The notes under the pieces are model-generated. The model saw only the letters and a program-made list of their open reading frames with translations, was not told the origin of the DNA and did no database searches. A DNA stretch of 64,000 nucleotides from Eukaryota sp. GEM-RC1. Lineage: Eukaryota. Both the position numbers and the translations under genes were made by a program. The stretch covers positions 1,240,001-1,304,000 of the forward strand of contig JAUFOQ010000016.1 in NCBI GenBank assembly GCA_040285855.1, read 5' to 3'. Within the stretch, counting starts at the first letter, position 1. Each line of letters starts with the position of its first letter. Positions 18,280 to 61,278 of this stretch are shown one piece after another.

Positions 18280-18660
18280 AGATCCAATTAACAGTCTTAC
18301 ATTGTTCCTTAAAGAAGTAATCTGGTAATCCTAGAGGTTATGATATTGAGTTCTGGATTTTGTTCATATCCCACAGTTTCTCTTCTATAAATACAAGTAA
18401 GTCAACTATTGACTCAAATGACCAGCACTCGATGTATACGTGGCAGTAATGGTTTTCTGACAGACAAAAATTTGTCTTCACCCCAACATTCCAGATCCAA
18501 TTAACAGTTCTACATTGTACCTTAAAGAAGTAATCTGGTAATCCTAGAGGTTATGATATTGAGTTCTGGTTTTTCTTCCTATCCCACAGTTTTTGTTCTA
18601 TAAATACAAGTAAGTTAACTATTGACTCAAATGACCAGCACTCGATGGTTACGTGGCGGT
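18280..18660. repeat. Two ~165-bp direct repeats (period ~213 bp)
   Basis: AGATCCAATTAACAG..TAAAGAAGTAATCTGGTAATCCTAGAGG..GACCAGCACTCGATG begins at ~18280 and ~18493. Confidence 0.9.
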
Positions 18661-18898
18661 ACAGTCAACCCTGTCTATAGCGTCACTATATGTCCTTACG
18701 CTATAACCAGTTTTACGCAATATCCAATAAATTCACTGTGCAGTTCAACCAATCGAGTTGAGTCTTTATAAACATTACAAGCTAAGAGAACTAAGTGTGA
18801 GTCGATGGATCATCAGCACAGTAGATGAAAGAACCATAGCAGCAACCAGATCATCACTCAACACCAAAATCTTGAGGTAGTTACTAGTGGTTGCATCG

Positions 18899-19279
18899 CC
18901 AATTCCGTTCCGTTCAGACTTCACTAAAGATTTGATTGCAAAGGGATTGGGGATGAAGTATCCAATGTAGGATGAGCTCCAGCTCTCCTCTCTCTACACC
19001 GCTCCAACTGCACCGCTCTCAATGTATTGTGGGTTCTTCTGTATCTCCAATTCCGTTCCGTTCAGACTTCACTAAAGATTTGATTGCAAAGGGATTGGGG
19101 ATGAAGTATCCAATGTAGGATGAGCTCCAGCTCTCCTCTCTACACCGCTCCAACTGCACCGCTCTCAATGTATTGTGGGTTCTTCTGTATCTCCAATTCC
19201 GTTCCGTTCAGACTTCACTAAAGATTTGATTGCAAAGGGATTGGGGATGAAGTATCCAATGTAGGATGAGTTCCAGCTT
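18899..19279. repeat. Tandem repeat, ~147-bp unit, ~2.5 near-identical copies
   Basis: CCAATTCCGTTCCGTTCAGACTTCACTAAAGATTTGATTGC recurs at ~18899, ~19047 and ~19193. Confidence 0.92.
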
Positions 19280-19937
19280 GGGATTGGGGATAACGTAGTT
19301 GTAGTTGTAGTTTTCTATGTATTTTGACGGGGCCAATGTCTTTTGATTGTTGAGCCTAGTCATGTGGGGTTATCCTTCTTTATTCGTTTTCACTGTGTGA
19401 TTTTGAATTTAGAATGAAAGATCTCACCCCAACAATACTACCCACGTGTAACAAGTAGTATTTACGTGTTTATGAAAAATAAAATCGTAAATTATAATAC
19501 TAAATTCTGAATACAATCGTGTTCCGCACAGGCTTCACTAAAGTAGTCCAAAATTCCAAATTAAAGTAAAGTGAAGTACTTTACTTTAAGCTTTACTTTA
19601 CTTTAACAAATAAAGTTACTTTAAGGACATTAAAGTGGGATCCGATCTCAACTCCTCTCCCATACATTCTCTCCTGAAAATTGAAAATAGATTTCCATGA
19701 CATTCATTCCTTCCGAAGAATGGAAGTCAGTATGTGAAGTTGTAGAGGTGTTGGGAAAAACATGTGCCCGCATACATTGCAAACTGTGCGACCAAAACTA
19801 CTCAGTCAATCGATGGGCTATGGAGGTACACTACATCCCGAATCTTCATCCTAAACGACCAATAAAGATGTGGTTCAAGTTGAAGAAGTGAACCCATATG
19901 AAGATGTGGTCCAAGTTGATCCATAGTGAAAATGATA

Positions 19938-20656
19938 CAGTCAGGTTCCTGTAATTTCAACCCCCATAATTTCAAGGATCCTCTAATTTCAAGGTCCCAA
20001 AATGTTACTTCCGATACCTCTAACATCAACTTTTCTCTAATATAACTGCTATCAGCTTCTAGAGCTACTTAAGAGCATCTTCTGGAACGTCGATATGAGT
20101 CTGCATGGAATTTCCTGTTTACGAGCCCTTAGTGTTCTGATAGCTATCTAAGTACATTCTAGCTATGCTGATTATTGATAGAGTCAGTTTGATGTTACTT
20201 TGTGTGTCATAAATCCTGTTTTCGCGTTTGCCTGCGTTCCAACTGGTGGTTTTCTTCCACTCACTTACATCCCAAAATACTTAACTATGAAACTCCAACG
20301 TCTTCTTCGTTGTTGTGGTAGTACTGTTGGTTACTCATTTCCGCAAATCTTGCTAAAAGTGATCTGAAACATGCAAAACTCAGCTCTACACGTTACGTTG
20401 ACGAAGTTCACGGAAAAGGACATCATTGACACCCTTACGGACGACAAGATCAACGAGAAATCAACACTTATCGAATCAGTGCGATTCAGGTAAAGGACTA
20501 AGCAATACAATGAAGAATTGGTGTTTTATTAGGTTATACAGAGACTACAGAGCGTATCATGAGTGAAAGTAGTTGAGAAGATAGAGAGATCCTATAAATT
20601 CAAGGTTCCTGTAATTTCAAGGTCCGGACAGGGTTGAAATTATAGGAACCTGACTG
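19938..20656. mobile_element. Tc1/mariner(pogo)-type MITE
   Basis: 26-bp TIR CAGTCAGGTTCCT(G/A)TAATTTCAACCC, TA on both sides. Confidence 0.88.
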
Positions 20657-20744
20657 TATATTCTTAAGCTCACCCGCTTTCCATTAAGAATTGTAGTTTT
20701 TGGTGAGTTTCTACAATAAAACATGTATAATAGTGTACTTTTGG

Positions 20745-23616
20745 AGAGATGTTTATTCGGCACCCAATAAGGTAACCTTTCTACAAACTATGAAATTGTA
20801 AAAACAAACAAATAATACTAAGATTAAATCCAAACGACTTCATCACCACCCGGTAAAAGATTATGTTTATCTACATGAACCTTCACACCAAACTTGTACA
20901 ATTTCTCAATTAATCTAGAGAAATAGAAAGGCATATTCCGATATATGGAAAACACTATACGGTTTTTCCATTCAGCCATTCTAAACTTACGCTTCTTTTC
21001 TTTACACAATTCTTCGAAATCCTTGAAAAATTGATCACCAGCAGGACTAATAGATCCAAAAGAGAAACAGCAAAAGGTTGAAACACAAATTTGGAATATG
21101 AGTTTCTATTTAATTCTTCTACTTGAGAGTCATACTTGGTGTGTTTGAGCTTTTCAGCTGCTGTTAATGGATTAAATGAAGAATCTAATATCCTACTAAC
21201 ACAAGATTTGTTACATACATCTACTGTAGTAAAATCCATTAATGCTTGACTCGATTTAAGCCACGGAGTATGTAGATCCCCTCGTTTTTGATCAGTAAAT
21301 TCATTTTCTGAAAGATGATTCAAAACTGGTTCAACTTTAGAGTGAAAACCATGTGCTTTAAACATGGAATAACAAGAATCACGTACACCATCATGAATTA
21401 CTGCACGGAGATGAATAAAATAACGACAATTAATTAAATGACGAAAAACACCATTAGCTCCACAAGAGCACGTTGAATAGTTTAATAAATTTGCAGGCCA
21501 AATAGCCAAACGAAGACGCATATTGATCATCCAAGCTTCATCAGATAGATGTAATCCATACACCTTTGGAATTTGAGAAATAAATCCAGAAGGTCCACTA
21601 TTACAAAGATCGATTAAAAAAGCAGCGAACTCGGGACTATTAGTTTTAGCCAAGCTAATACGATTATTAAAGTCCAAGAGTTCAAACTCCTTGTCAATTT
21701 ATTTTGCAGCTTACATACAGCAGATGGTAGAGATGAAATATTTTTAAAGGAGTCTCCTTCAAATGAGCAGGGAACAAAGATTCCCACATTTCAGGAGACA
21801 AAGATGATAACAAATCTTTAGCAGATTGAATCCAACGGCAATTACTGGAATTCAACAGATTGATTCCATCCAAGGGAAACCGTTTCAAAAATTCAAACAT
21901 AAAATTCTTAACACCTCCTAAAAGAGCAGATTTTCTAATGATTTTTGCATGGGTGAAACCTACTCCTGCGAATTCAGAAGAATAAAAAGCATGAAATGGA
22001 ATCTTAGACTCATCAATTTCAGCCAAGTTAGAGAGAAAATTTGTTCTAATAGAATTAAATTTCTTGGCAAATGTTTCAGTAAGGGAATACTAGTAGTCTA
22101 ATGAACGTAAAAAATGATTAATTTTCCCGGAAAAACAGACCTGAAGCATAGCAAAGGAAACATGTTTGCTCACATCTAAAGATAATATTTGATTTAGTTT
22201 TTCTTCAATTGTAGTTAATGAACTCTCCAATTCTGAATGAATTTTCTCATAATTTCCCAAAAACGTGCCAAGGAAACGAAAACATTAAGTAGAATAATCG
22301 ATGATAGGAATATTACAAAAACCAAGATTAGAAACATTCGAAGACTTAACAACAAGAAAACACTTATCAAAATTGATTGTTAAACCAATACTCAAAGAAA
22401 GTTCGATGAAACGTGAAAAACACTTTTTGAGAACGTCAACTGGAGCGATCAGCGAAGAATCATCAGCATAAGCACAAATTTTAACAGTTGGAAATTCTAA
22501 TTGTAAGATTTTAAATAATTTTTGCAGAGCGAGACAAAACAAAAAAGGACCCAAAGGATCACCTTGCTTAACCCCTCTAGTTGATTTAATATCAAACTTG
22601 TCATAAATTAAATTCGACGCTTTACCATAAAAAATATTAAAATAGGGAATCAACTGAGGAAAAAATTTAGAAAGTTCGTCAGATATAGTTGATCTTAAAA
22701 CACAATTAAATGCATTTTTAAAATCAATGTTCAAAATGGCATTTTCCTCATTTGAATGAAAAAGAAAATCAGAGGTTAAAGCAGCACACGTAGTACCATC
22801 AGGAACTCCAACTGCAAATTGAAACGGTCTAAAGAATTCAACAGAGGAATCTCTGACTCTCCTAAAGCACAAAGTTGAAAAAATACGAGAAATTGTTTCA
22901 CCCACTGCAATTGGTCTCACACCTCCATTTGGTTTGCTTAAAGCCACTAATCTAGAAGAGCAAAGAGCATGAGGTAATTTCTTTGTGCCTAATAAAACTT
23001 CATTAAAGAAAACAGCAAGATCTTCACAAATTTCAGGAACAGCATTAACGGCAATTTTAAAATGATCAAAACTCATTCCAGAAGGACCAGCAGCACGACC
23101 AGAAGGGGATGACGAAATTAATTGTAAAATTTCATCAACTAAAACAGGTTTGTTAGTCCAGTACGACATAGAAAGTTCACCAAAAACCGGATTGCCTGAA
23201 AATTCTTCAACAGGGTGTAATTTTTTCAGTTTTTCAACAGTTTCAACAGAAACTTCAGCTGGAAGTGTGTGATTAAGGGAGGACAAAGCAGAAGAAAACT
23301 GACCTCGTAAAACAAGATTTTGAAATCTTTTAGCAATAAACTTATCACTAACTTGAGACTTAAGAACAGGTTTAATTTTTCTATTGGACTTCTTAACAAT
23401 TGACAACATATATCGCCAAAAGGTGCGGGATTCCAAATTCCACCACGTAAAATTTGTGTCACACTTCTAAGAGCAGTCCCGACATTAACGGCCGCCATTG
23501 GAGATATCATGATAGGAATTCTAAATTGTGGACGACATACATCAATAGGTGAACAATCAAAACACACAAGAAGTGGACGATTGGATTTATTTTTCCCAGA
23601 AACAAAACTTACTTAC
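20745..23616 (-). mobile_element. 5'-truncated RLE-type (CRE/NeSL/R2-like) non-LTR retrotransposon, frameshifted
   Basis: RT motifs RPIAVGE, DFKNAFN, GVKQGDPLGP, YADD (22285-23436); C-terminal CSCG..H..C, HDGVRD, KRGDL, AAEKLKHTKY; candidate 10-bp TSD GTACTTTTGG at 20735-20744 and 23617-23626. Confidence 0.88.
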
Positions 23617-28539: not shown

Positions 28540-29497
28540 TGTTGTGGATGTATTATAGAATTATCTTCTTTTTAAATCTTCTCTTCTTGAATTTAAGAGT
28601 CTTTCGGCATCAATAATTATTGGCCCAAACTGGTAATCTGTTTTTCGAACTATACTAACCATAGAATAATGAACGTTAAAACAACGTGCCAAAGAACTAT
28701 ACCAAGGCTGACAGTCACAACAGTGGAGAGTATTAGCAGGTTCATGCTGGAATACTCTGCTTGTGATAAAGTCGGAACTGATGGTACAAGACTCACTCTG
28801 CGGGATTGTGTCGAAGAGGACTTATTGGAGTCCATCTCCTTTGTCAACCCAGATGTCACCAAGAGTGACGAAGAACTGAGGAACTTTCTAGAATCTTCCT
28901 GTGAATATGCCTCTATCGAAGAAGTCTATGAAGCTTTCCTCCAGCTGAAAATGGATTCTACTATCACAAATCCTCGAGCCCGAGTATTGGATTACACAAA
29001 ACAAGTAGTTGCTGTCAAACGCCGGGCAAAGAAATACGAACTCCCAGAAAAAGCCGTATTGTCTAGATTTGTTAAGGGTGTTTTGCCAAAAGGTCTCTCC
29101 GAATCTCTCAAAACTCGTGTAGCTGATGGCTATTTCAGCTCCTTGTCTGAACTCGTTGAAGTTACCATCGAAGATCTCACTGACTTTGAACGTGTAAACC
29201 AATGGAAGTCTCGGAGTCGACTGTCTTCCTCATCTGAAATGGTAGATACACCAGATGTTAAGCAAGTTCGCCATGGAGAGGCCTTGTCAAAGAAGTTGTG
29301 CTTTAAATGCGGAGAACAGGGACATATCGCCTCTGTGTGTCCGACAAAGCTCAACGCTCATCGTATCAATATGTTGAGATGCACCAACCCTCTAGAGCAC
29401 TTGAAAGAACTGGAGAAAGAGTGATGTTGTGGATGTATTATAGAATTGTCTTCTTTTTAAATCTTCTCTTCTTGAATTTAAGAGTCTTTCGACATCA
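28540..29497 (+). mobile_element. Miniature gag-only LTR retroelement
   Basis: 73-bp TG..CA LTRs at 28540-28612 and 29425-29497 (2 differences); 4-bp TSD CAGG; purine-rich tract before the 3' LTR. Confidence 0.9.
28669..29424 (+). CDS. Gag-like protein with CCHC zinc knuckle
   Basis: Intact 251-aa ORF containing CFKCGEQGHIASVC; fills the space between the LTRs. Confidence 0.85.
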   Translation: MNVKTTCQRTIPRLTVTTVESISRFMLEYSACDKVGTDGTRLTLRDCVEEDLLESISFVNPDVTKSDEELRNFLESSCEYASIEEVYEAFLQLKMDSTITNPRARVLDYTKQVVAVKRRAKKYELPEKAVLSRFVKGVLPKGLSESLKTRVADGYFSSLSELVEVTIEDLTDFERVNQWKSRSRLSSSSEMVDTPDVKQVRHGEALSKKLCFKCGEQGHIASVCPTKLNAHRINMLRCTNPLEHLKELEKE

Positions 29498-30234
29498 CAG
29501 GGGTATGAAAACAATATTACTTTTCCAATATTAATTTCCGTTCTTTGAGGTGGAGCAATATCTATTGTTATACCGCATAATTATTGCAAAATTGTAGTAT
29601 TGCCATTATACTTCGAGTTGTTCATTTCGTTGTTTTTCTTCACCATTTGGACTTGCAAAACCTGTTGTGTTGCCTTGTGTGTAAAAATAGTGAGAGTTGT
29701 TTTGCAGGCAATGATTTCAAATTGATAAGGGCTGTCATTTGAGCTCAGTTCGAGTGTTTAATGATGTACAATGCATATTTTTTCCCTCATACTTCTTTAA
29801 TTTTACATTGTCATAATTTCGTCTAATGAATGAAGAGGTAGACAATGGAATTGAAAGTATTTCGGATATTTCTGATGATGCTGGACAATAGAATATGTGG
29901 TTTTGTTTGCGATATATACACAATATGATTCATATTGTTGTAATACTGAATCATTTTGCAATAATGGTTGAAGAATTGTAATATTTATTGGCGCTTTTTC
30001 AGAATTGCAATATTAATTTCGTGGCTAAAATACATTTGTATTTATTGCAATACATTGTACTGTTTTCACACCCCTGGTTCATGTACAATGTAAAAAATTA
30101 TAGACATTGACAAATACATTAGAAAATGATATTGTTATTGATCAGGGAGAACTGATAAATATGTTAATAGATATGCTTCTGTGATTCGATGAAAATATAT
30201 ATTGGAATATTTAATCCTTACTAGTAGTTGTGAT

Positions 30235-30971: not shown

Positions 30972-31523
30972 GTTGTGATACCATTTAGTAAGACAACAAA
31001 TACTAAATGAAACAAACTTAGTAATCAACACCAATGTCTACCACTTCACCATCATAGCATATATCACTTCTTGTGTTAACAATGTATTTAACTAAAAGTA
31101 AATTCCGGTCTTCATAGACAAACAGTTGTTTATCAAGAATGTCTGGCTTAACAGAAGGACGACGATGGATTTCTACTTTAGTTTAGCTTTACTGGACAGT
31201 CATGTCGCTGTAATAGTTTCATGGTAAGATGTATGGAAATAAAGTCCAGATACTTGTAATTTTATCTTACTTCTTGTTGTTGACAGCAATGTAACAGTGA
31301 CACAATTGCAATTGATAAGTAAGGAACGGCCTAACATCAATGAACAACGGCATTTCAGTTCAAATGTGTGTGTATTGTGCTCAACTCTAAGTGTTTGACT
31401 TCAAATTGAAGTCTTCAATCATGTATACTTAAATATTGCAATGTCAGGCAACCTCTGAAATAGTCCAAAATTAGTATATTTTCCAACATTGATTATAGTA
31501 CAATGTATTGCAATATCAATATA

Positions 31524-32525
31524 CAGTCTTCCCTCGGTTTAGTGCCACCTCGGTTTAGTGCCACCTCGGTTTAGTGCCACACCTCGGTTTAGTGCCAAAT
31601 TTTCGCTTCCAAACATTTGTCGATCGATCTTTCCTTCTCTATCGACCGTTCCTCGATCGATCTCCCGTCTATCTATATGTACAATAAACACGCTTACATT
31701 CTATAGTCTTTGGCTTCATATTTGGAACCCAACACTAACCTTTCTTCTCATCACACACTTTCCTTCTGAAGATGTTTTACAAAGAGTCTTCTGTGTTATC
31801 TAGACACACTCAACACCAAATCACGCCAAAAATGTCCCACTTCCTTTCTTATTCTGTTCTCATCCTTTGATTTGATATATATAAGGGTAGAATTGGGAGT
31901 GTTTACAATTTGGACTCAACGGGAACATTTTCCGCCGTGACCGGATGACGACTTTACTAGAGACGTTTTGCTAGAGAAAGAAGGCACCAAGAACGTTGAA
32001 TGATCCCATATACCCTCTCAGGGGTTAGAATATCCTTCGTCTTGAAGGCAACCACATGTTCTTCCCTCTTCGTTGACGGATTTCGCTGGTCTTTCTCCGT
32101 TTTCATTCCTTCAACAGCTTTCTACTCAACGTTCTCATCTGATTTCTCCTTTCAAATTCTTTCTTTGGGATGAGTTTTTGTCTTCTCTATGCTTTCTGTT
32201 TCTGGGCTGATACTTCTTCAGTGATCTCAGATGTACTTGTTGTCTGGTAAACTTCATTCCTAGCTCTTCGTTGTTCGCTAAAACATCATGAATGATATCA
32301 AATTTCTCAATGTGTCACTGCCTTTTTCTTGAAACCCTTTCTCTCCCATATGATGGCCAATGGTACCCCACTAGTATCACCAGTAGATGCACGTCTGTTA
32401 TAGCTTTTATTTCACATAACAATAAACATCCATCATCATCTGTTCACACTGCACGGAACAATCCCTCGATATAGTGCCGACCTCGGTTTAGTGCCAAACA
32501 GCGGCACTAAACCGAGGGAAGACTG
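31524..32525. mobile_element. Tc1/mariner(pogo)-type MITE
   Basis: TIR CAGTCTTCCCTCGGTTTAGTGCC, TA flanks, tandem CCTCGGTTTAGTGCCA subterminal repeats; diverged inverted internal copy at ~45050-45210. Confidence 0.88.
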
Positions 32526-32688
32526 TATATTAGCGTTCCCTACATTACATTTTTTGGTAAGGCCGAATTGCGTTGGAACTGTTTTGTATTATTGTTTCGT
32601 GATGATGTATTCAAACGAATTAGTAAACTACTACATTAGTTTTTAGCAGGAAATATACATGTACAGCAGATTTAGAAAAACGCTATGT

Positions 32689-43784: not shown

Positions 43785-44291
43785 TTATTGCTGAGCATTC
43801 ATTAATAGTTCTTGAGGAAGTTTTTTGGGTTGGAAGCCTAATAGTTTTACTAGATTAGCTCTGATTGAAGCAGAACACAAAGCATAGAGGAAAGACATTG
43901 AACAGTCCGTGAAGTCCTCTCCTGCAAGCCGACGATGAGAGATTTTCTTAATGAGACCAAATGGTTCAAAAGGAAGTTTAGCAACAACAACACCATCAAA
44001 TCGTTTGGATAACAGACGATAAGCAACAACCATAATGATACCAAGGAAGAAGGTTCCCTTGGCTTTCATTATTTGGATGTTCTTGTTTTCTTGACGAAGA
44101 GTGTCTTCTGTCTTTTGCAGCGTTTTTTGGTCTCCGTATTTACCTTTCTCCCACTTATCTAAGAGAGTGCTAATTTTGTTTTTCATGTTTTTGTACTTTG
44201 AGGTACGATAAACAAAGAGCCATCCTAAAAGTTCCGAAACAAGACTGACAGAAATGGAAAACAGAACAACTAAGAGAAGAGGAGGAATCAT
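43785..44291 (-). CDS. TMCO1: TMCO1 (DUF106/Oxa1 superfamily)
   Basis: WLFVYRTSKYK, FDGVVVAKLPFEPF, SHRRLAGEDFTDCSMSFLYALC. Confidence 0.92.
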   Translation of the reverse strand: MIPPLLLVVLFSISVSLVSELLGWLFVYRTSKYKNMKNKISTLLDKWEKGKYGDQKTLQKTEDTLRQENKNIQIMKAKGTFFLGIIMVVAYRLLSKRFDGVVVAKLPFEPFGLIKKISHRRLAGEDFTDCSMSFLYALCSASIRANLVKLLGFQPKKLPQELLMNAQQ

Positions 44292-45869
44292 TCTTAGTAA
44301 TGTAAACAGCTTCACCAGTTAATAGAACAACAATCTCTCAAATTACAACACTATGAATCATGGATTCGCTCAGTACAACATCTACTTCCTTCTGAGTACG
44401 TTTCTCCCAGCATCTACACACACAAATCCCAACCAACAGTCCCCGATGAAGACATTATTTGCATTTCCGATGCTGACGATTCGTATTTAACATGTCCTGA
44501 TGATAGTGATCTTGTTCGACAACAGAAACAGGATGCTGAGACTGTTCTCACCGCTTGGGACGTTCCGACTCATAAGAAACGTGAAATGATTGGAAAAATT
44601 AAAGGTCCAAAACGTGAATCTTTTGATTTCTGGGCTATTAGGGATCCCAATGGGGAGGAATTGTAATGAACTTTTTCTCTTGTTTTGTCCATTTGAAGAA
44701 GTTAGCACAAAAAGTAGAAAAGTTGTTTGGTTTATTGATGAAGATAAATAAGCATCAGAATTGACTATGATTCTGGAGTATCTTCTGACTTATAGTATGA
44801 GATTGATACATAGTACGAGTGATAACACTAAGAGAAGAGAAATCTATATTAGACAAGAATGTTACATGTTTGTTGATGAATCAGTAAGACGAGAGTTGAC
44901 TAAGTGATGTAAGTTGAAAGAGAGATAAGAAGCAAGACTGAGACTTGAGAGGGAACATGGGCTCATTCAATGTTCTTGGTATCTCCTTCCTCCAGCAAAA
45001 CGTCTCTACGGAAGCCGTTGAGACCAAATTGTGACCGCGTCCAATTATACTTTAATTTATATCAAAACAAAGGATAAGAACAGAAAAAGAAAGGAAGTGG
45101 GACATTTGTAGCGTGATCGTGTGTAAAGTGTGTCTAGAAAACCAATACGACTCTTTGTACAGCATCTTCAGAAGGAAAGCGTGTGAAGAGAAGAAATGTT
45201 GGTGTTGGGTTGTGAAAAGAAAGATGTGAATTGTTTAAAGAACAACTGAAAGGAGCAAATTCATGGTCAATTGTCTATGTAGAGGACACTGAAAAGTGAA
45301 AAATGAAGACAATCGTCAATAAATGTCTTGACTGACATGACACTGTAGACACATCTATAAATACCAACAACATACAAAATGGCCTATTTTCTGCTCACAT
45401 GTCGATGTTCATTCATTCGACGGTTATGAGAGGCCTGTTTTTGGTGGGAAAGTCATCCTATCAAATCAGGTGGAATTCTACAGAAGCAACTTCTGTAGAT
45501 ATCTTGTATCCATACAGCCTGGGTGGGACCGGGCGGCAATATGCTATTCAAAGGCATCATTGTTCAATCAAAACCCCAAGGAAGGCATTTTTGGTCATTG
45601 ATCCAATTCAATCCAAATTTTTTATTTTTTCGAAGTCGAGGGTTTTATATGGGAGTATGTGTGTTGTTTTTGGCAGTCAGGCCTATCATTTTTACATGCC
45701 CAGCATGGTGATAGAACCACCAGGGCAACACACTGCTTTCCAGCCCCCAAACTTGCCTCCTTGTAAAATTCAGTGGATCGGTGGTGGTGGTGGTGGTTTT
45801 GGTGGTGGTGGTCAAATTTTATTGAAGTGTCGTTTTTTGCAAATTTCTGTCAGTTTTGATTGTAGACTG

Positions 45870-45923
45870 CAGTTCAAAATTGATCTTACGTCTGATGGTG
45901 ATGTGGAATCCAATCCAGGTCCA
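45870..45923 (+). other. 2A-like ribosomal skipping (StopGo) peptide
   Basis: QFKIDLTSDGDVESNPG|P matches the D(V/I)ExNPGP consensus; core at 45900-45923. Confidence 0.85.
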
Positions 45924-46571
45924 CAATCTGATCCCAATTCTGATCCCATCGGTACAAGATTGAGTCTTTCAAGTCTTGGTACAGAACCTGCTCATAAGAA
46001 GAAAACTGTACTGTCCGAATCTCCTTTGCAGTTTCTAGAAGCTGAGGAGTTATATCTTTTCTGGACATTGAATCTCTTTCGGCAAAAGAATTGCATACTG
46101 TAAAACTCCCTAAAACTTCGGAGAAAAAAGATGCTGCAGACGATGAACTCGATTCAGAAGCCAAACCAATCTCTGAATTGTCTGAAGAACCAGATCAGTT
46201 GAAACCTGACTTTGAAAATGATTCAATCATCCAGATTGGAATCCAACTTGTAAATACTTTTGAACATCCTTTACAAGAGTCAAGGAGTTTCTTGTTTACT
46301 TCTAAGCGAGTTCTTACTGATGATCTCAATGCTGAAGTTCTTCATTTTGAAAATGAAAAGGAAATGTTGGTTGAATTTATTCATCTCCTGAAATTGGAAG
46401 AGCCAAAACTCATTTGTGGCTACAATTTAAATTCATTTGATTTGCCGTTTATTGTTCGTCGATGTCAACTGCTTGGTGTGGAAATCAATTTCTTAATTAA
46501 ACTGGGTGAAGGTTCTGTTTGTTGTCTGTGGTTTTTTCAAAGATGGGCTAAAAAATCAAATCTTGCTTCTA

Positions 46572-47368
46572 CAGTATCCTCTCTATATCTTCTCGCCTTT
46601 GGGAACACAAAAAACCGAGAAGATATAGAGAGCGAGAAGATATACAATTATGTTTAAAACCCAAATAATACATATGTTTATTAAGTCTACTCAATAACAA
46701 TCACATGTGCATTGTTTGAAGAGTGGAAAAAGTGCATCAAAGTTCTTTGGCTCAATTCTTCAACTCTTAATTCCTGAAACTCACGTTAAACTTCATCCAA
46801 AGTGTATTACGAGGAGTGTTTTCAGTGAAAGTTGACAGAAACATAGGATTGCAAAGCTGTAAGAGCATTTTATACTTCTGTTCTAGAGACTTCAGCTTGT
46901 GGTTGCCAGAATTACGTCTTCAGTGATTATCATCAGTGACAAGTTCATTTCCACAAACAAAACAAGAGCTGCATCTAGTTCAGAATATTTTAATGTTCGT
47001 GTCCTTTTGATTGTCTTAACTTCTTTTCTAGTGTAATTGCTTGTTCAAGAATTTGAGCACGTCGTTTGAGTATTTTTACTATAGTTGTTCGGTGAGGAGG
47101 TGCAGGAAAATTGAAGGTTTCTTTGGCCACAGGGCTAGATCGGTATTCTTTAAGTGTGCATTTTTATCAGCATACTAAATGAGTAGCGCTGATTGTTTGA
47201 CACCAATTTCTACGGGTTTTGGTTTACGATGTTTGATAGTTTGGCTCATAAAAAGCGAGAAGATATAAACCGAGAAGTTAGATAACCAAATGACTTAGGG
47301 AATTGAAAAAAGCGAGAATTTATAGAGAGTGAGAAGATATACAGCGAGAAGATATAGAGAGGATACTG
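46572..47368. mobile_element. Tc1/mariner-type MITE inserted in the exonuclease coding region
   Basis: Perfect 25-bp TIR CAGTATCCTCTCTATATCTTCTCGC; TA TSD at 46570-46571 and 47369-47370. Confidence 0.92.
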
Positions 47369-50326
47369 TATTTGGTCTCTGGATTTGTATCAACTCTTAC
47401 GTTCTACTTATACGTTTCCCGGAGGTAGATCATTGGAAAATGTTGTTTCATATCTGTTTGAAGGTTCACACATTCAAAAATTGGGTCTTTTATCCGAAGA
47501 TGAGAAAGTTCGTCTTACAACTAAGTACAAGAGTCAAGGTTATGAAGTGCTAAGAAATCAAACTACTTTAGCCAAGTTGAAAGAAATTGAACGTTTGTGG
47601 AATGGTTCAGATGAAGACCGTAGGTCTCTTGCTTGTTATTGTATTAACGATGTTGAATTATGTCGTTACTTAGTAGACTTCTTCTTAGATAAAAAATTGC
47701 AAACAATGTTGTTTCTTCCTGCTGTTAAATCTGTTAAATGTGATCTTCGTCAAAATCTAAACGATTCCAATCCCCAAGATCAACAATCTGATCTTAATGA
47801 ATTTCGCAGAATTGGAAAGAATTTTAGTAGAATCAATACCAGAGGTAGAATGCTCTTAAAGTTATTCTTTATTGATGAATATGATCGTCAAATAAATGAA
47901 AAACCTCACGAATTACCCAACTTGGACATTCTTCAAGAAAAAACAAGGTTCTAGAGTCTTTATGGTGGTCTGTTTGTCAAAAAGAAGTGAATTGGAACAC
48001 TACTATGAAAAACAAGGTTGTGATGAAAAGATGCAAGTATTGTACAACAAAATTGAACAGGAAGAAGAAGAGATCGAAATGGAAGATTCGGAAACTGTGG
48101 AACTTGTAGAAAGAAAATCGAAAAGAGGTACTGTGTCTAGTGAGCTTGTCTCAATGAGATGTAGGATGGCCCACCTATGTTTTGATTATTACTTGCCAAT
48201 TCTCGAAATGATCTCCGTTGAACAAAATGTCGCGTCATGGACAAATTCACAACCTCAAGTTTTTGAGAAAGATTACGATTTCCTAGCTCCTTCCTACAAA
48301 TTAATGGATCAAATTTTGAAATACCATTCAAGACATGTACGTGCAAATTATGCTACTCATTTGAAAATGCACTTTCATGAATACATTTTCCGTGCCATGA
48401 ACATTTGTTTGAATAAAAAATCGAGAATAACAGAGTTAAAAAGACCATGCGATTGAAAAACAAGAATTGTTGACCCAGTTCAAACAATTGAGAGAAAAAA
48501 TTATTGATTGTAAAATTTCTGAAATCAATTTTGACTTATTTGAAAATCCTGAAAGAAGTATTTGTAGAAATTTTAAAGACTATCTGGAAAGTCATTTTAC
48601 TTCAATATTTGTCAAAGATAAAAACTTATTCTATTCTCAAAAGGTCCATCCAATGAAGTTGTTGTCTCATGCAATTTTTATTACAAGGCTTGTTAGAGCT
48701 GAAACTGATGAAAGAGGAAATCCTTGCAGTATTCCAAATTGTCTTCCTTTTACAGACACTGTCATTCCACATCATTTTAGAGTTGACACTAAAGTTGTAT
48801 TAGGTAATTTCTTCAAAAAGAAGCCATGTCTGAAGCTCAAGATTTAGAATCCAAGATTTCTGGGGACAAAATTTTCAAAAAACAAACAAAGAAATTTTAC
48901 ACAAGTCGTTCTGTCCAATACGGAACAGAAATCTGGGATTCCCTACTTAACAGAGATGCTAGATGCTTCAAATCTACTAAGGCAAATTACTCCTTTAAAA
49001 ACTCACTCCAAACTGATGGTGTTTCAGTTTCACTTGTTTTACAAAGAAACGATTTAGTAGGAAAAAAATATTCTACAATTCAATTGCATACTGAAGAAAA
49101 GTATCTGGATGATTTAACCGATGCCGATATTGAGGAATTAAATCTCAGAGAAAGAACTCTTGTGGGCATTGATCCAAATAAGTATGCCCCAATTGTTGCT
49201 GTCACAGAAAAGTCTGCTGAGGAATTGGAAAAGAAGGAATCAAAGAAGATGCAACCACAAGGCCACGAAAGCCATCAGGACGTGTCATTAAAAACAGAAG
49301 AAACCACAGAACACCCAAACCTGAAGTTCAAGTCTCTAAAGATGTTAAGCTGAGAGAAAAAGACAAGTTTAAGAAGTTTGTTTATACTCAAGGAGAACGT
49401 AACTACGACTCCAAATTCAAAAAATACCGTAAAACAGAACAACGAAAGCTCGAATCGACTACCTGTCTTGATGTAACTGGTAAAGATGCAATGAATCTCT
49501 TCTCTGCTGCTGTCAATCAAGGACAAAAACAATCTTGTGTTCGTGGAGAGTTTTGTCAGTACATCTATCAAAAAGAACTGTTTAACCTGAGAACTTGGAA
49601 TTTGTATAGTGCTACTTGGTTTAGAAAGAGGCAACTTCAATTGTACTCCAACAAAAAACGGGGAGAAGACCAAATGATCAACCGTTTCAAGAAAAAATTT
49701 GGTGAACCAAACAAAGTTCTCATCGGTTATGGTGATTGGAACGACTCTGCTTTTCGCTCGAAAGGTTTTATTCCGACAATTAAAGGAAAAGCAATGAGGA
49801 AGCTATTTACAAAAGCAGGGTTCAAGATTTTTCTAGTGGATGAGTACCGAACTAGTAAGTGTTGCTCTAAGTGTGTTAAGGACGGAATATTTGGAGAAAA
49901 TACCCACAATCATGGAATCACATGTCCAGATCCAAACATCCATCGAAAGAAGAAACGGAAAAGAAGTGGCTGAAGTGGTACTGTAAGAAAAACAGTATGG
50001 ATTTCCAAGAAGAGTGGAGAAAAGCTGAAGAGGAATTTGAGAAACGTGCTGAAGTGAAACCGTGGGGTTTGCTCAAGTGTAAGTATTGTACTACTATGTG
50101 GGACAGGGATTTCAATTCAGGCATCAACATTATGGAAATCATGAAGGCAAAGTTAGCTGGGCTACCCAGGCCAACTATTCTCAGCAGAAGCCAATCTGAA
50201 CAAATGACTTCTGAGATTAGTTGTGTACAATGTCTTGAGACTGAGGAGAGTGAGGAAAAGGACGTCGTTGCAGAAGATGAGAGTGAAGAAAATGTGGACG
50301 TTTTGATCGATCAGTCTGGATCTTAG

Positions 50327-50545
50327 TTTTACAAACTTTTTAGTCTACCTTAACCAGTAGGCAGCATTTAGTGTTGATTTCCTTCTTAATTGAGGAGGAA
50401 TCATTGATCAAAATTTTTGAATAATATAGAAGATTAACTTTGCATCATCAACAGCTCAACACTGGTTACACTGCATCAACGTCGGATTCTAGTGTAAAGA
50501 TTAATCCTAACAGAAATTCGTTTGATCGTATGTCCATGTAGTTTA
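50327..50545 (+). ncRNA. Candidate Fanzor omegaRNA scaffold
   Basis: Directly 3' of the Fanzor stop; stems at 50343-50362, 50375-50403, 50408-50420 and 50432-50506 (enclosing 50467-50496); boundaries uncertain. Confidence 0.55.
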
Positions 50546-50721
50546 GTTTACTAGTCCCTATCTATATTTTTGTTGTTTGATTGTCTCAGCACATATCTCC
50601 CACCTCTATGATCATAAATTCTGTTTGATTGGGCAAAATGGATCTATGGATTTTATAAAAATGTGTCATGGTTAAGCATCCAAAAAGAAATTCACAGTAT
50701 CCAAAGTGTGAATGCTTTCCC

Positions 50722-51369
50722 ATGTACTTTGAGAAACAACGCGCTGCTCTTTGTGCAGTTCATGCAATCAACAATCTACTTCAACGACATGTATTTACTG
50801 AGTCTGATTTTGCTGAAATAGCTGCTGGTCTCTCTGCTACAGAATCTCAATTAGGAGCATCTGAACCAGTTTCATACCACGTCTCTCTTTCAGGTGACTT
50901 CTCTATTGAAGTCATAAATAAAGCCTTGGAATTCTTTGGTATTCAGCTGATCAATCTTAAGTCCTCTGAACCCACTGCCGTTTCCATTAGAAACAATCCA
51001 ACCAGTGCAGAAGCCTTCGTTTTGAATAGAAACACTGCTGATTCTGGGCACTGGCTCTCAATCAGATCTGTCAATGGCCAATTCATTGAACTAGATTCCC
51101 TGAAACCAACTCCCGTACCCATCAGTCACACTCTTCTCGAACTCACAATTGATCAGTACCTAAGAGAAGGCTACACTGTGTTTGTTTGTAACAGTCCACT
51201 TCCAAGTGATCATGACTTGGCAGCGTTTGAATCAAATCCACCTGATTCTTCTGATACTGAGTATATGACATCTGAAGAAGAACAACAACACGAACAACAA
51301 CAGAGGATGGTTGAACAAGAGCGAGCTGATTTTGCTGTTGCTATGGCACGATCAATGATGGAAAAATGA
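50722..51369 (+). CDS. ATXN3: Ataxin-3/Josephin deubiquitinase with C-terminal UIM
   Basis: YFEKQ..LCAVHAINNLLQ, GDFSIEVI, HWLSIR, LDSL, DFAVAMARSM. Confidence 0.9.
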   Translation: MYFEKQRAALCAVHAINNLLQRHVFTESDFAEIAAGLSATESQLGASEPVSYHVSLSGDFSIEVINKALEFFGIQLINLKSSEPTAVSIRNNPTSAEAFVLNRNTADSGHWLSIRSVNGQFIELDSLKPTPVPISHTLLELTIDQYLREGYTVFVCNSPLPSDHDLAAFESNPPDSSDTEYMTSEEEQQHEQQQRMVEQERADFAVAMARSMMEK

Positions 51370-55100: not shown

Positions 55101-55789
55101 TATCTGTTTAAGTTTCTGATTGATTTTACGTCACAAATTTTCGTGTATTTGAACAATAAAACTCTTGACAGATCAGCAATAAATTTAGCATGTATTTTGC
55201 AGTTTTCATACGGCGGAGGCACGAGAGGATATATTTTTTAAGGAGTCTCGTTTAAGTGAGCAGGGAACACTAACTCCAACATTTTGAGGGACAATGGTTA
55301 CACCAAATTTTGGACAGATTGAAACAGTCCTACTCACACTGAAAGATAATATCTAATTTAATCTTGATTCAATAAGCATGATAGTTGGTGAATCTTCCAT
55401 TTGAGAATGAATTGGTTGTTGTTGCAAAACCAGTTTTGTTGCATTATGTGTAAAAATAGTGAGTGTTATTTTATCGGCAATGATTTTTGTTTGTTGTATT
55501 GTCATAATGTCTGTCATTTGAGTTCAGTTGGAGGGTTAACTGAACTACAATGAAAATTAGATTCTTTTCCTCACACTTCTTTGATTCTACATTGTCATAA
55601 TTTCTTCTAATGAATGACGATGTCAACAATGGTATTGACATTATTTCGGATGTTTCTGATGATGATGGACAATAGAATATGTGGGCTTGTTTGTGACAAA
55701 TACACATTATGATCAATACCGTTGCAATATTGAAATAGTGCAATATTGATTGGCGCTATTGCAGAATTGCAATATTTATAGAAATAAAA

Positions 55790-56165
55790 AAACGGATTTA
55801 TGTGCGGAGAAAAACACATAATAAGAAAACAACAAATAAATAAACACTATTAAAAGAAATTGTCAAACGAACTACCTAATTCCGAAAAGTAGTTGCCTCC
55901 AAACAACTTGGACAAAATGGAATCAACATATCTATGCATGGACCTAAAAATCGAAAAAGCAAATTTACCCTTCCAGTACGATCTGTTAAACTTCTTGCCA
56001 AATTCTGAACACAAATTTTCAAATAAATGTAAAAACTCATTGGTAGAAGAACCGAAATTTCCGTACAAAGAAACTGCAAAAGGCTGAAAGACGATATTAT
56101 TGTGTCTTCGTGAATTCAATGCAGCAACTTGATGTGCGTACTTAGACACTTTGGCGTTCTCAGCG
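55790..56165 (-). pseudogene. 3' fragment of an RLE non-LTR element inside a hAT-MITE copy
   Basis: AENAKVSKY..FQPFAVSLYG..WKGKFAFSIFR; flanks resemble 29650-30076, with TIR end TGTTTTCAGACCCCTG at ~56217. Confidence 0.7.
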
Positions 56166-60566: not shown

Positions 60567-60909
60567 GTGAAGAGTGGAAGAGGTGTAGTTGGGGTTGAAG
60601 ATTGTTGATCAAAAAAGTCAATTTGGGTTTCCGAATATTGTTTCTACAATATTGTATTACAATTGAAACAGTGTATAATATATGTATTACAATTTTAACG
60701 GTGTTGTCTCGTGTAGACAAGTCCTCTGTTAGATTTTGTTATATTCGTTCACAAAAGTAGTAGGATAAGACTGGAGTTGTTTCAAGACTTTCTTGTACAC
60801 AGAAATGTTGTAAAAAGCCAAAGTGTAAATCCTATTTTCGAAACAATAAGAAATCCACTCACTTGTAGTGATCACGCGAAAATACTATGAATTTAAGGAA
60901 ATTTAGAAA

Positions 60910-61278
60910 AAAGCGGACTTATGTGCGAAGAAAAAAACAACAAATAAATAAAGACTATTAAAACAAATTATCAAACGAACTACCTAATTCCGTAAAGTAA
61001 TTCCCTCCAAACAACTTGGACAAAATAAAATCAACACATCTATACATAGATCTAAAAATCGCAAATGCAAAGTTACTCTTCCAGTACGATCTGTTAAACT
61101 TCTTGCCAAATTCTGAACACAAATTTTCAAATAAATTTAAAGACTCCATGGTAGAAGAACCGAAATTTCCGTACAAAGGAACTGCAAAAGGCTGACAGAC
61201 GATAATATTGTGTCTTCGTCAATTCAATGCAGCAACTTGATGTACGTACAGTACTTAGACACTTTAGCGTTCTCAACG
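60910..61278 (-). pseudogene. 3' fragment of an RLE non-LTR element, paralog of 55790-56165
   Basis: Near-identical YGNFGSST..LFENLCSEFGKKFNRSYWK and shared 3' UTR. Confidence 0.75.

Follow-up and report, generated by a model that had tools for sequence, protein, structure and literature searches.

2A peptides have been reported in RNA viruses, in non-LTR retrotransposons and in a few cellular genes. The purpose of an N-terminal 2A in a mobile element is a standing question, for which two ideas are on offer: the 2A may insulate the protein against what precedes it, or it may throttle a harmful enzyme. In single-ORF non-LTR retrotransposons (L1Tc, Ingi, CR1, L2, Rex1 and Crack) a class A 2A is found close to the beginning of a single long ORF; a short leader precedes it, its position is conserved, and damaged copies occur (accessible parts of PMC3708506 and PMC3894237). 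Two 2A surveys (accessible portions of PMC12338488 and bioRxiv 10.64898/2026.09.24.754024) mention eukaryotes and reverse-transcribing elements alongside RNA viruses. Supergroup-4 picornaviruses (aalivirus B1, limnipivirus B1, kunsagivirus C1 and WCP) possess 2As of the type DLTxDGDVESNPGP; according to the accessible text of PMC11512398, 2A1 and 2A3 of aalivirus B1 are highly active, skipping and continuing, and 2A1 of limnipivirus B1, 2A1 of kunsagivirus C1 and the WCP peptides terminate only. Fanzor1 nucleases (SpuFz1, PpFz1 and GtFz1; Saito et al. 2023, PMC10432273; PMC3627910; PMC10530073; accessible parts) combine a RuvC D-E-D set with a zinc finger, and their genes are multi-copy, sit at transposase-free loci and have a structured stretch past the stop codon. 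The family B polymerase Pol delta bears a DEDDy proofreading exonuclease (PF03104).

The 64,000-nt stretch of Eukaryota sp. GEM-RC1 DNA analysed here (the window) holds, between the host genes TMCO1 (43788-44318, minus strand) and Josephin (50659-51366), an element that invites comparison with each of these systems (Table 1). It shares the N-terminal class A 2A and its setting with the retrotransposons; unlike them, it carries an exonuclease-Fanzor1 downstream in place of a reverse transcriptase or APE, and one leader-2A is common to unrelated proteins. Pfam returned no reverse transcriptase or APE domain after the 2A, either in the window pieces or in the intact relatives, which sets the element apart from APE-type non-LTR retrotransposons. 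Unlike the picornavirus peptides, this 2A belongs to a eukaryotic DNA element and its upstream product is seemingly without a protein function. The nuclease matches Fanzor1 in fold and sequence and shares the features of that family listed above, the structured stretch past the stop codon as a weak candidate; in contrast to the Fanzor1 proteins of the cited sources, it has double the length, because a PolB-type exonuclease forms its N-terminal part, and it comes with a 2A and in some cases a Ulp1 protease. The exonuclease has the same PF03104 domain as Pol delta, with ExoI-III intact in subfamilies A-C, but it is fused to Fanzor without any polymerase domain, and in three other subfamilies that keep the domain the catalytic residues are lost.

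Table 1. Features of the element and their positions in the window.
Feature	Position	Strand	Basis or remarks
Open domain-less leader, 182 codons	45336..45881	+	ORF scan, Pfam, codon score
TATA-like CTATAAATA, then A-rich ATG (45379)	45355..45381	+	sequence
(GGT)n microsatellite, (GGT)6-TTT-(GGT)4	45780..45812	+	sequence
Class A 2A/StopGo-like motif DLTSDGDVESNPGP	45882..45923	+	sequence; viral matches
Predicted skip site	between Gly 45918-45920 and Pro 45921-45923	+	motif position
Linker from 2A to exonuclease	45924..46056	+	sequence
First 1-nt break, T-run	46057..46060	+	read through in P0182, P0196; common to P0181
DEDDy PolB-type 3'-5' exonuclease, first part	46061..46569	+	PF03104 E 6e-16; ExoI 46061-46072, ExoII 46421-46441
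MITE, 801 bp, TA both sides, 27-nt perfect inverted ends	46570..47370		missing from sibling P0196
Exonuclease, second part, and link to Fanzor	47370..47936	+	ExoIII YCIND 47637-47651
Fanzor1, pieces parted by 1-nt breaks, no internal stops	47939..50326	+	motifs, homology
Hairpin-rich stretch after stop codon, candidate omega-RNA scaffold	50327..50510	+	z -2.0

The 2A motif lies in frame +3 and is the sole NPGP in a six-frame translation of the 64-kb window. Its core, GDVESNPGP (45897-45923), agrees with the class A C-terminal consensus GD(V/I)ExNPGP (accessible part of PMC3708506), and the chance expectation for D[VI]ExNPGP in 64 kb is 3.2e-5 matches. Thirteen of its 14 residues are identical to those of the tested picornavirus 2As named above (PMC11512398, accessible text); the residues farther upstream, which decide the outcome, differ. 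The frame of the motif is free of stops from 45336 to 46103, and ExoI follows in frame +2 some 47 codons past the 2A, close to the ~45 given in the preliminary description of this DNA. That description had made the 2A part of the exonuclease-Fanzor gene, and this assignment is borne out: in the siblings P0182 and P0196 and in records of subfamilies B, C and D the motif is in frame with the exonuclease, and a check for intact copies in which it is missing or out of frame returned in-frame motifs in the intact relatives. The linker contains a basic HKKK patch at 45993, a possible nuclear signal. Judged by sequence, a multi-copy 2A-exonuclease-Fanzor1 element has this motif as its conserved head. 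We think it somewhat probable that this candidate StopGo frees a junk leader from a Pro-initiated exonuclease-Fanzor1 whose front end is swappable.

The relatives of the element document how well the arrangement is kept. Copies 68-99% identical to window segments carry the name Eukaryota sp. GEM-RC1, and the siblings P0182 and P0196 (81-95% identical) run unbroken from the 2A into the exonuclease. A search with the Fanzor end yielded three long proteins among 334 candidates, all from Eukaryota sp. TZLM3-RCL (a Skoliomonas according to the accessible part of PMC11316075) and each a 2A-exonuclease in one frame, while 7 of the 196 proteins collected combine 2A, ExoI and the three RuvC motifs in one record; these seven full-layout records, with 2A, exonuclease and RuvC motifs in a single frame, belong to the related protist. 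Four subfamilies have a visible start, A (window), B (P0001), C (P0002) and D (P0157), and GD[VI]ExNPGP is present in 4/4 even though their exonucleases are just 20-38% identical to one another, so the proposed check of conservation across copies finds the motif kept in four diverged subfamilies. Subfamilies E and F (P0095 and P0136) are annotated from a later Met and stand outside this count; three B records (P0006, P0009 and P0014) are also annotated from a later Met and have no 2A. The canonical motif occurs in 19 of the 23 records that show the region (window included) and is damaged in four.

Such damage bears on the idea that the motif is inherited and now mostly read through or bypassed, with the nuclease starting at a downstream AUG or keeping the leader as a disordered tail. 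The four damaged copies of 23 would fit it, as would the Met that subfamilies B, C and D have 28-38 residues past the 2A and the many retrotransposon 2As that proved inactive when tested (PMC3708506, accessible part). We nevertheless regard this history as decidedly improbable: the eight core positions are retained by four subfamilies with flanks that cannot be aligned, and subfamily A has no AUG before ExoI. Its first Met after the 2A falls at +148 residues, inside the exonuclease, so that only translation running across the 2A can yield the whole enzyme.

In a wider search, the best 150 matches among 1.84 billion representatives include six with NPGP and eight with the exonuclease, and every carrier of either among those 150 is named TZLM3-RCL or GEM-RC1. 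At 21 distant Fanzor loci (7 viral and 14 metagenomic, several of them short) we counted no NPGP and no exonuclease match, and searches with exonuclease patterns or close queries brought up no relatives in viral contigs or metagenomes. The 2A pattern matched 62 stretches of short viral contigs; at none of these loci did either the exonuclease or the Fanzor give a match. For the RuvC region, a quickly built tree of 68 rows (all 8 named rows plus the first 60 out of the remaining 81, with 12 near-duplicates dropped) unites the eight named rows and two fragments on one long branch with an SH-aLRT of 100. Since hits with either feature are confined to two names, the 21 distant loci have neither 2A nor exonuclease and the tree gives a single branch, the 2A-exonuclease-Fanzor1 architecture looks lineage-specific within what was searched.

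Downstream of the linker, all three DEDDy motifs are present (ExoI DxE as LDIE, ExoII NxxxFD as YNLNSFD and ExoIII YxxxD as YCIND). The Fanzor1 part contains the RuvC motifs GIDPN (49165), DEYRTS (49839) and DRDFNS (50102) and the zinc-finger motifs CSKC (49863) and CKYC (50078); the combination that marks Fanzor1, a RuvC D-E-D with zinc finger and a terminal RD motif, is thus found as GIDPN, DEYRTSKCCSKC, CKYC and DRDFNS. The protein has a TnpB-like zinc-ribbon end in the window, and Pfam reports PF07282 in the relatives; PF26935 is listed in the annotation of P0001 and P0003. A sequence search with P0012 retrieved SpuFz1 (E 8e-13) and GtFz1 (E 6e-7). A structural model of P0001 built from 87 sequences (mean pLDDT 72.5, pTM 0.73) has low confidence over residues 1-144, followed by exonuclease and Fanzor1 folds, and in Foldseek its seven top hits are Fanzor structures (E 1e-18), followed by family B polymerases (E 4e-5). 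A single-sequence fold of P0196 reached a mean pLDDT of 34.8. In the clusters of P0157, P0095 and P0136 the exonuclease domain is retained and its catalytic Asp, Glu and Tyr are lost; three subfamilies thus keep the domain without catalytic residues, which suggests that binding may matter too. P0157 (subfamily D) has a Ulp1 protease directly after the 2A.

The window copy itself is interrupted. The MITE splits the exonuclease, and seven 1-nt breaks, six of them in A- or T-runs, part the coding sequence into nine translated segments without a single nonsense codon (0 internal stops). The preliminary description had recognised one frame break and located it at GAGGAG near 46045, with FLEAEGVISFLDIES as the intact reading; the MITE and six further breaks downstream must be added to that count, and the siblings move the first break to the T-run. 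P0182 and P0196 read FLEAEELY[L/F]FLDIES there, which points to a one-base shortfall in the run (restored as LYLFLDIES), and the homologue P0012 reads CYLFLDIET. A programmed frameshift was considered for this site and rejected, because the siblings read in frame across it. Five breaks in total are read through by siblings: 46057, those at 48438 and 48815 (both P0186 and P0027), 49229 (P0039) and 49959 (P0026). Some are shared, 46057 with P0181, 47938 with P0196 and 49229 with P0186, and the break near 47960 is covered by no sibling protein. As the break at 47938 is unread by subfamily A siblings (P0196 also ends there), evidence that exonuclease and Fanzor are fused comes from B and C only. 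The sibling records named GEM-RC1 come from Nanopore assemblies corrected with Illumina reads (PMC11316075, accessible part), and most of the 1-nt breaks may be long-read errors, since homopolymer slips without nonsense codons fit errors in repeats. The window copy is dead or dormant, inactivated by the MITE.

Upstream of the motif, the leader is open and domain-less, as had been proposed: its 182 codons are stop-free, with no match in Pfam and no usable match in the Atlas. Openness of this length ahead of the 2A is far from trivial (analytic p 3.9e-6); none of 20000 base shuffles stayed open, and a single one of 5000 Markov simulations did. The codon score of the leader, from a small in-sample model trained on 17 window ORFs, is -0.04 to -0.08; the coding pieces score +0.03 to +0.22, and controls from non-coding DNA score -0.13 to +0.04. 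The leader appears merely open, with codon use like that of non-coding DNA, and the upstream product looks like junk. Six ATGs are in frame (45399, 45405, 45426, 45657, 45696 and 45705); the ATG at 45379 opens a 16-codon frame one base off that of the leader, and together with the TATA-like CTATAAATA it is a possible promoter or start. The (GGT)n tract, to which the preliminary description had drawn attention, stands at the coordinates it gave, but a role as glycines does not: the length varies from 5 to 11 codons among siblings, P0182 has a Trp run instead, and the tract is not conserved. It falls outside the five top G4 scores of the window. No stable RNA structure was detected before the 2A (z +0.4), and an IRES is therefore not favoured.

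The length of the open leader would also be expected if a bigger gene further upstream (of a Helitron, LINE or virus-like parent) ended in it or contributed it as a spliced exon, in which case the 2A would part two real proteins in the manner of a polyprotein. The leader is open far beyond chance, and Ulp1-like and exonuclease partners stand behind the same front end, as described below. We hold this to be improbable, given that the plus strand between 44666 and 45336 has no ORF of at least 80 codons, that the leader combines the absence of a domain or Atlas match with non-coding codon use, and that leaders contain tandem repeats and range from 37 to 187 residues. Translation of the leader by read-through from a host gene, suggested earlier, finds no support: an in-frame stop at 45333-45335 stands just before it, and the nearest upstream ORF ends at 44666. 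That ORF (44301-44666, 121 codons, no Pfam match) lies between TMCO1 and the element. A 266-nt segment upstream of the leader (44946-45211) is 76% identical, in inverted orientation, to the interior of a MITE at 31518-32531, which is TA-flanked with 29-nt inverted ends; the ends of the 44946-45211 copy itself were not found. We considered this segment as part of the element and set it aside, as it resembles a MITE interior and could not be tied to the element.

Leader and 2A might instead form a dual-targeting signal, sending the unskipped product to a membrane compartment and the skipped one to the nucleus. Dual targeting has been demonstrated for a sea-urchin-type 2A-like signal (PMC4981915, accessible part), and some leaders are hydrophobic (best 12-residue hydropathy of 2.57 in P0157). 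The 161-residue leader of the window, however, reaches only 1.66, the B and C leaders go as low as 1.26-1.43, and a secreted nuclease would have no evident use, all of which makes this proposal very hard to credit.

In the reading that we prefer, the leader is discarded and its front end can be swapped. The suggestion that the element might be expressed from variable leaders is supported by the relatives: leaders are diverse even inside a subfamily as well as from one to another, and proteins with nothing else in common start with one leader-2A. Comparison of nine leaders by blastp gave no between-subfamily matches; leaders span 37 to 187 residues, with tandem repeats in P0003, P0178 and P0179, and in subfamily C several unrelated far-upstream leaders are joined to one 37-residue proximal part. 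The 77-residue leader-2A of P0001 recurs in P0029, P0030 and P0032 (70/77, 72/77 and 67/77 identical, respectively), and past the terminal Pro of NPGP the next 30 residues share only 3, 2 and 0 positions with P0001. Behind the shared front end, P0029 continues with a sequence that has an ExoI-like motif (by eye), P0030 with a Ulp1-like protease (Pfam E 0.03; Atlas 0.95) and P0032 with 36 residues. P0058 also has a P0001-type leader-2A, with a deletion and a damaged motif, and continues into a different PolB-type exonuclease (E 6e-16); the latter is closer in layout to Pol delta and may come from another kind of element that bears a polymerase. P0183 and P0184 of subfamily A have leader, 2A and 14 more residues in common before a tail absent from the window. 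All of the relatives are predicted proteins or gene models, whose junctions could be predicted introns or assembly artefacts.

How such an arrangement would work can be outlined as follows. Ribosomes would initiate at an AUG within the leader, which would be let go at NPG, and most ribosomes would go on from Pro; the nuclease would thereby gain one fixed N-terminus with a basic patch, whatever leader stood upstream, and the part of the ribosomes that terminate would cap nuclease output. With the nuclease thus insulated from whatever precedes the 2A, elements would be able to swap front ends of leader and 2A at the 2A boundary. As the least certain steps, the freed protein may cut RNA-specified DNA and the exonuclease may trim the ends, favouring copying of the element during repair. 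In its broadest form, to which we give rather less than even chances, the proposal is of a clan of protist mobile elements with a portable leader-2A cassette acting as a universal translation starter, which ends at the NPGP codons and is swapped among unrelated cargo genes that have no start codon of their own. The main cargo would be an RNA-guided nuclease with an end-trimming exonuclease, and the cargoes as a whole would comprise active exonuclease-Fanzor1, Ulp1-exonuclease-Fanzor1 and other exonucleases.

Partial termination could also be the point of the motif rather than a by-product. That close tested viral 2As in part only terminate makes a throttle the main rival: the 2A would be active but chiefly terminate, keeping a genotoxic nuclease scarce while the RNA still served as omega-RNA precursor, with release of the leader secondary. 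Four close tested viral 2As of the DLTxDGDVESNPGP type give the upstream product only (PMC11512398, accessible text), a down-regulating role was earlier proposed for retrotransposon 2As (PMC3894237, accessible part), and the out-of-frame AUGs at 45379, 45541 and 45649 in the leader region point to low output. On the other hand, aalivirus 2As of the same type continue efficiently (PMC11512398, accessible text), and a throttle alone leaves junctions exactly after NPGP in unrelated proteins unexplained. We judge it rather unlikely as the chief function; it is compatible with release of the leader from the nuclease, and the two are not exclusive.

As to mobility, Pfam identified no transposase and no Rep-helicase at the locus, and we found no terminal inverted repeats or target duplication: the best inverted and direct flank matches were equalled by 195/300 and 168/300 shuffles, in a comparison of one copy that may have overlooked short ends. 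The CTAG sites that follow the stop codon have no clear hairpin (by eye, one copy). The fold of the stretch following the stop was matched in stability by 3 of 200 shuffles, making it a weak candidate omega-RNA; Rfam gave no match there, three sub-threshold hits being rejected. An 8-nt pairing of 50351 with 50461 was dismissed as within chance, and the SpuFz1 RNA is without a pseudoknot. Elsewhere in the window, a third element (19935-20659) has 29-nt inverted ends that open with TA-CAGT, similar to the other two MITEs, and non-LTR retrotransposon pieces (20958-23466, minus strand; RVT_1 E 1e-20) have no 2A motif nearby. A 275-codon ORF with a CCHC zinc knuckle lies between two 73-nt direct repeats that are 97% identical (28540-29497), and dispersed and tandem repeats of 150-400 nt occur at 55774-56165 and 60891-61278, at 29653-30017 and 55422-55779, and at 18280-19278.

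In the literature covered, the main texts of openly available papers, we found no 2A on a Fanzor or a DNA transposon, nor did we find an exonuclease-Fanzor fusion. Judged by their listings, papers that treat Fanzor together with a 2A peptide do not concern natural loci, and those on Fanzor with an exonuclease are engineering work and reviews. The main texts of PMC3627910, PMC10530073, PMC10432273, PMC10711439 and PMC10288648 never use the word 'exonuclease'. By sequence comparison, a real and conserved 2A heads a family of exonuclease-Fanzor1 elements that is undescribed in this literature, and there are signs of a portable leader-2A module. Here nature has fused an exonuclease to Fanzor1 and kept the two active sites intact, something that genome engineers assemble by hand, and the element offers a candidate case of StopGo on the ribosome of a deep-branching protist. 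Because the upstream product is junk-like and interchangeable, the two ideas about N-terminal 2As in mobile elements, leader insulation versus throttling of a harmful enzyme, would be directly testable with natural variants.
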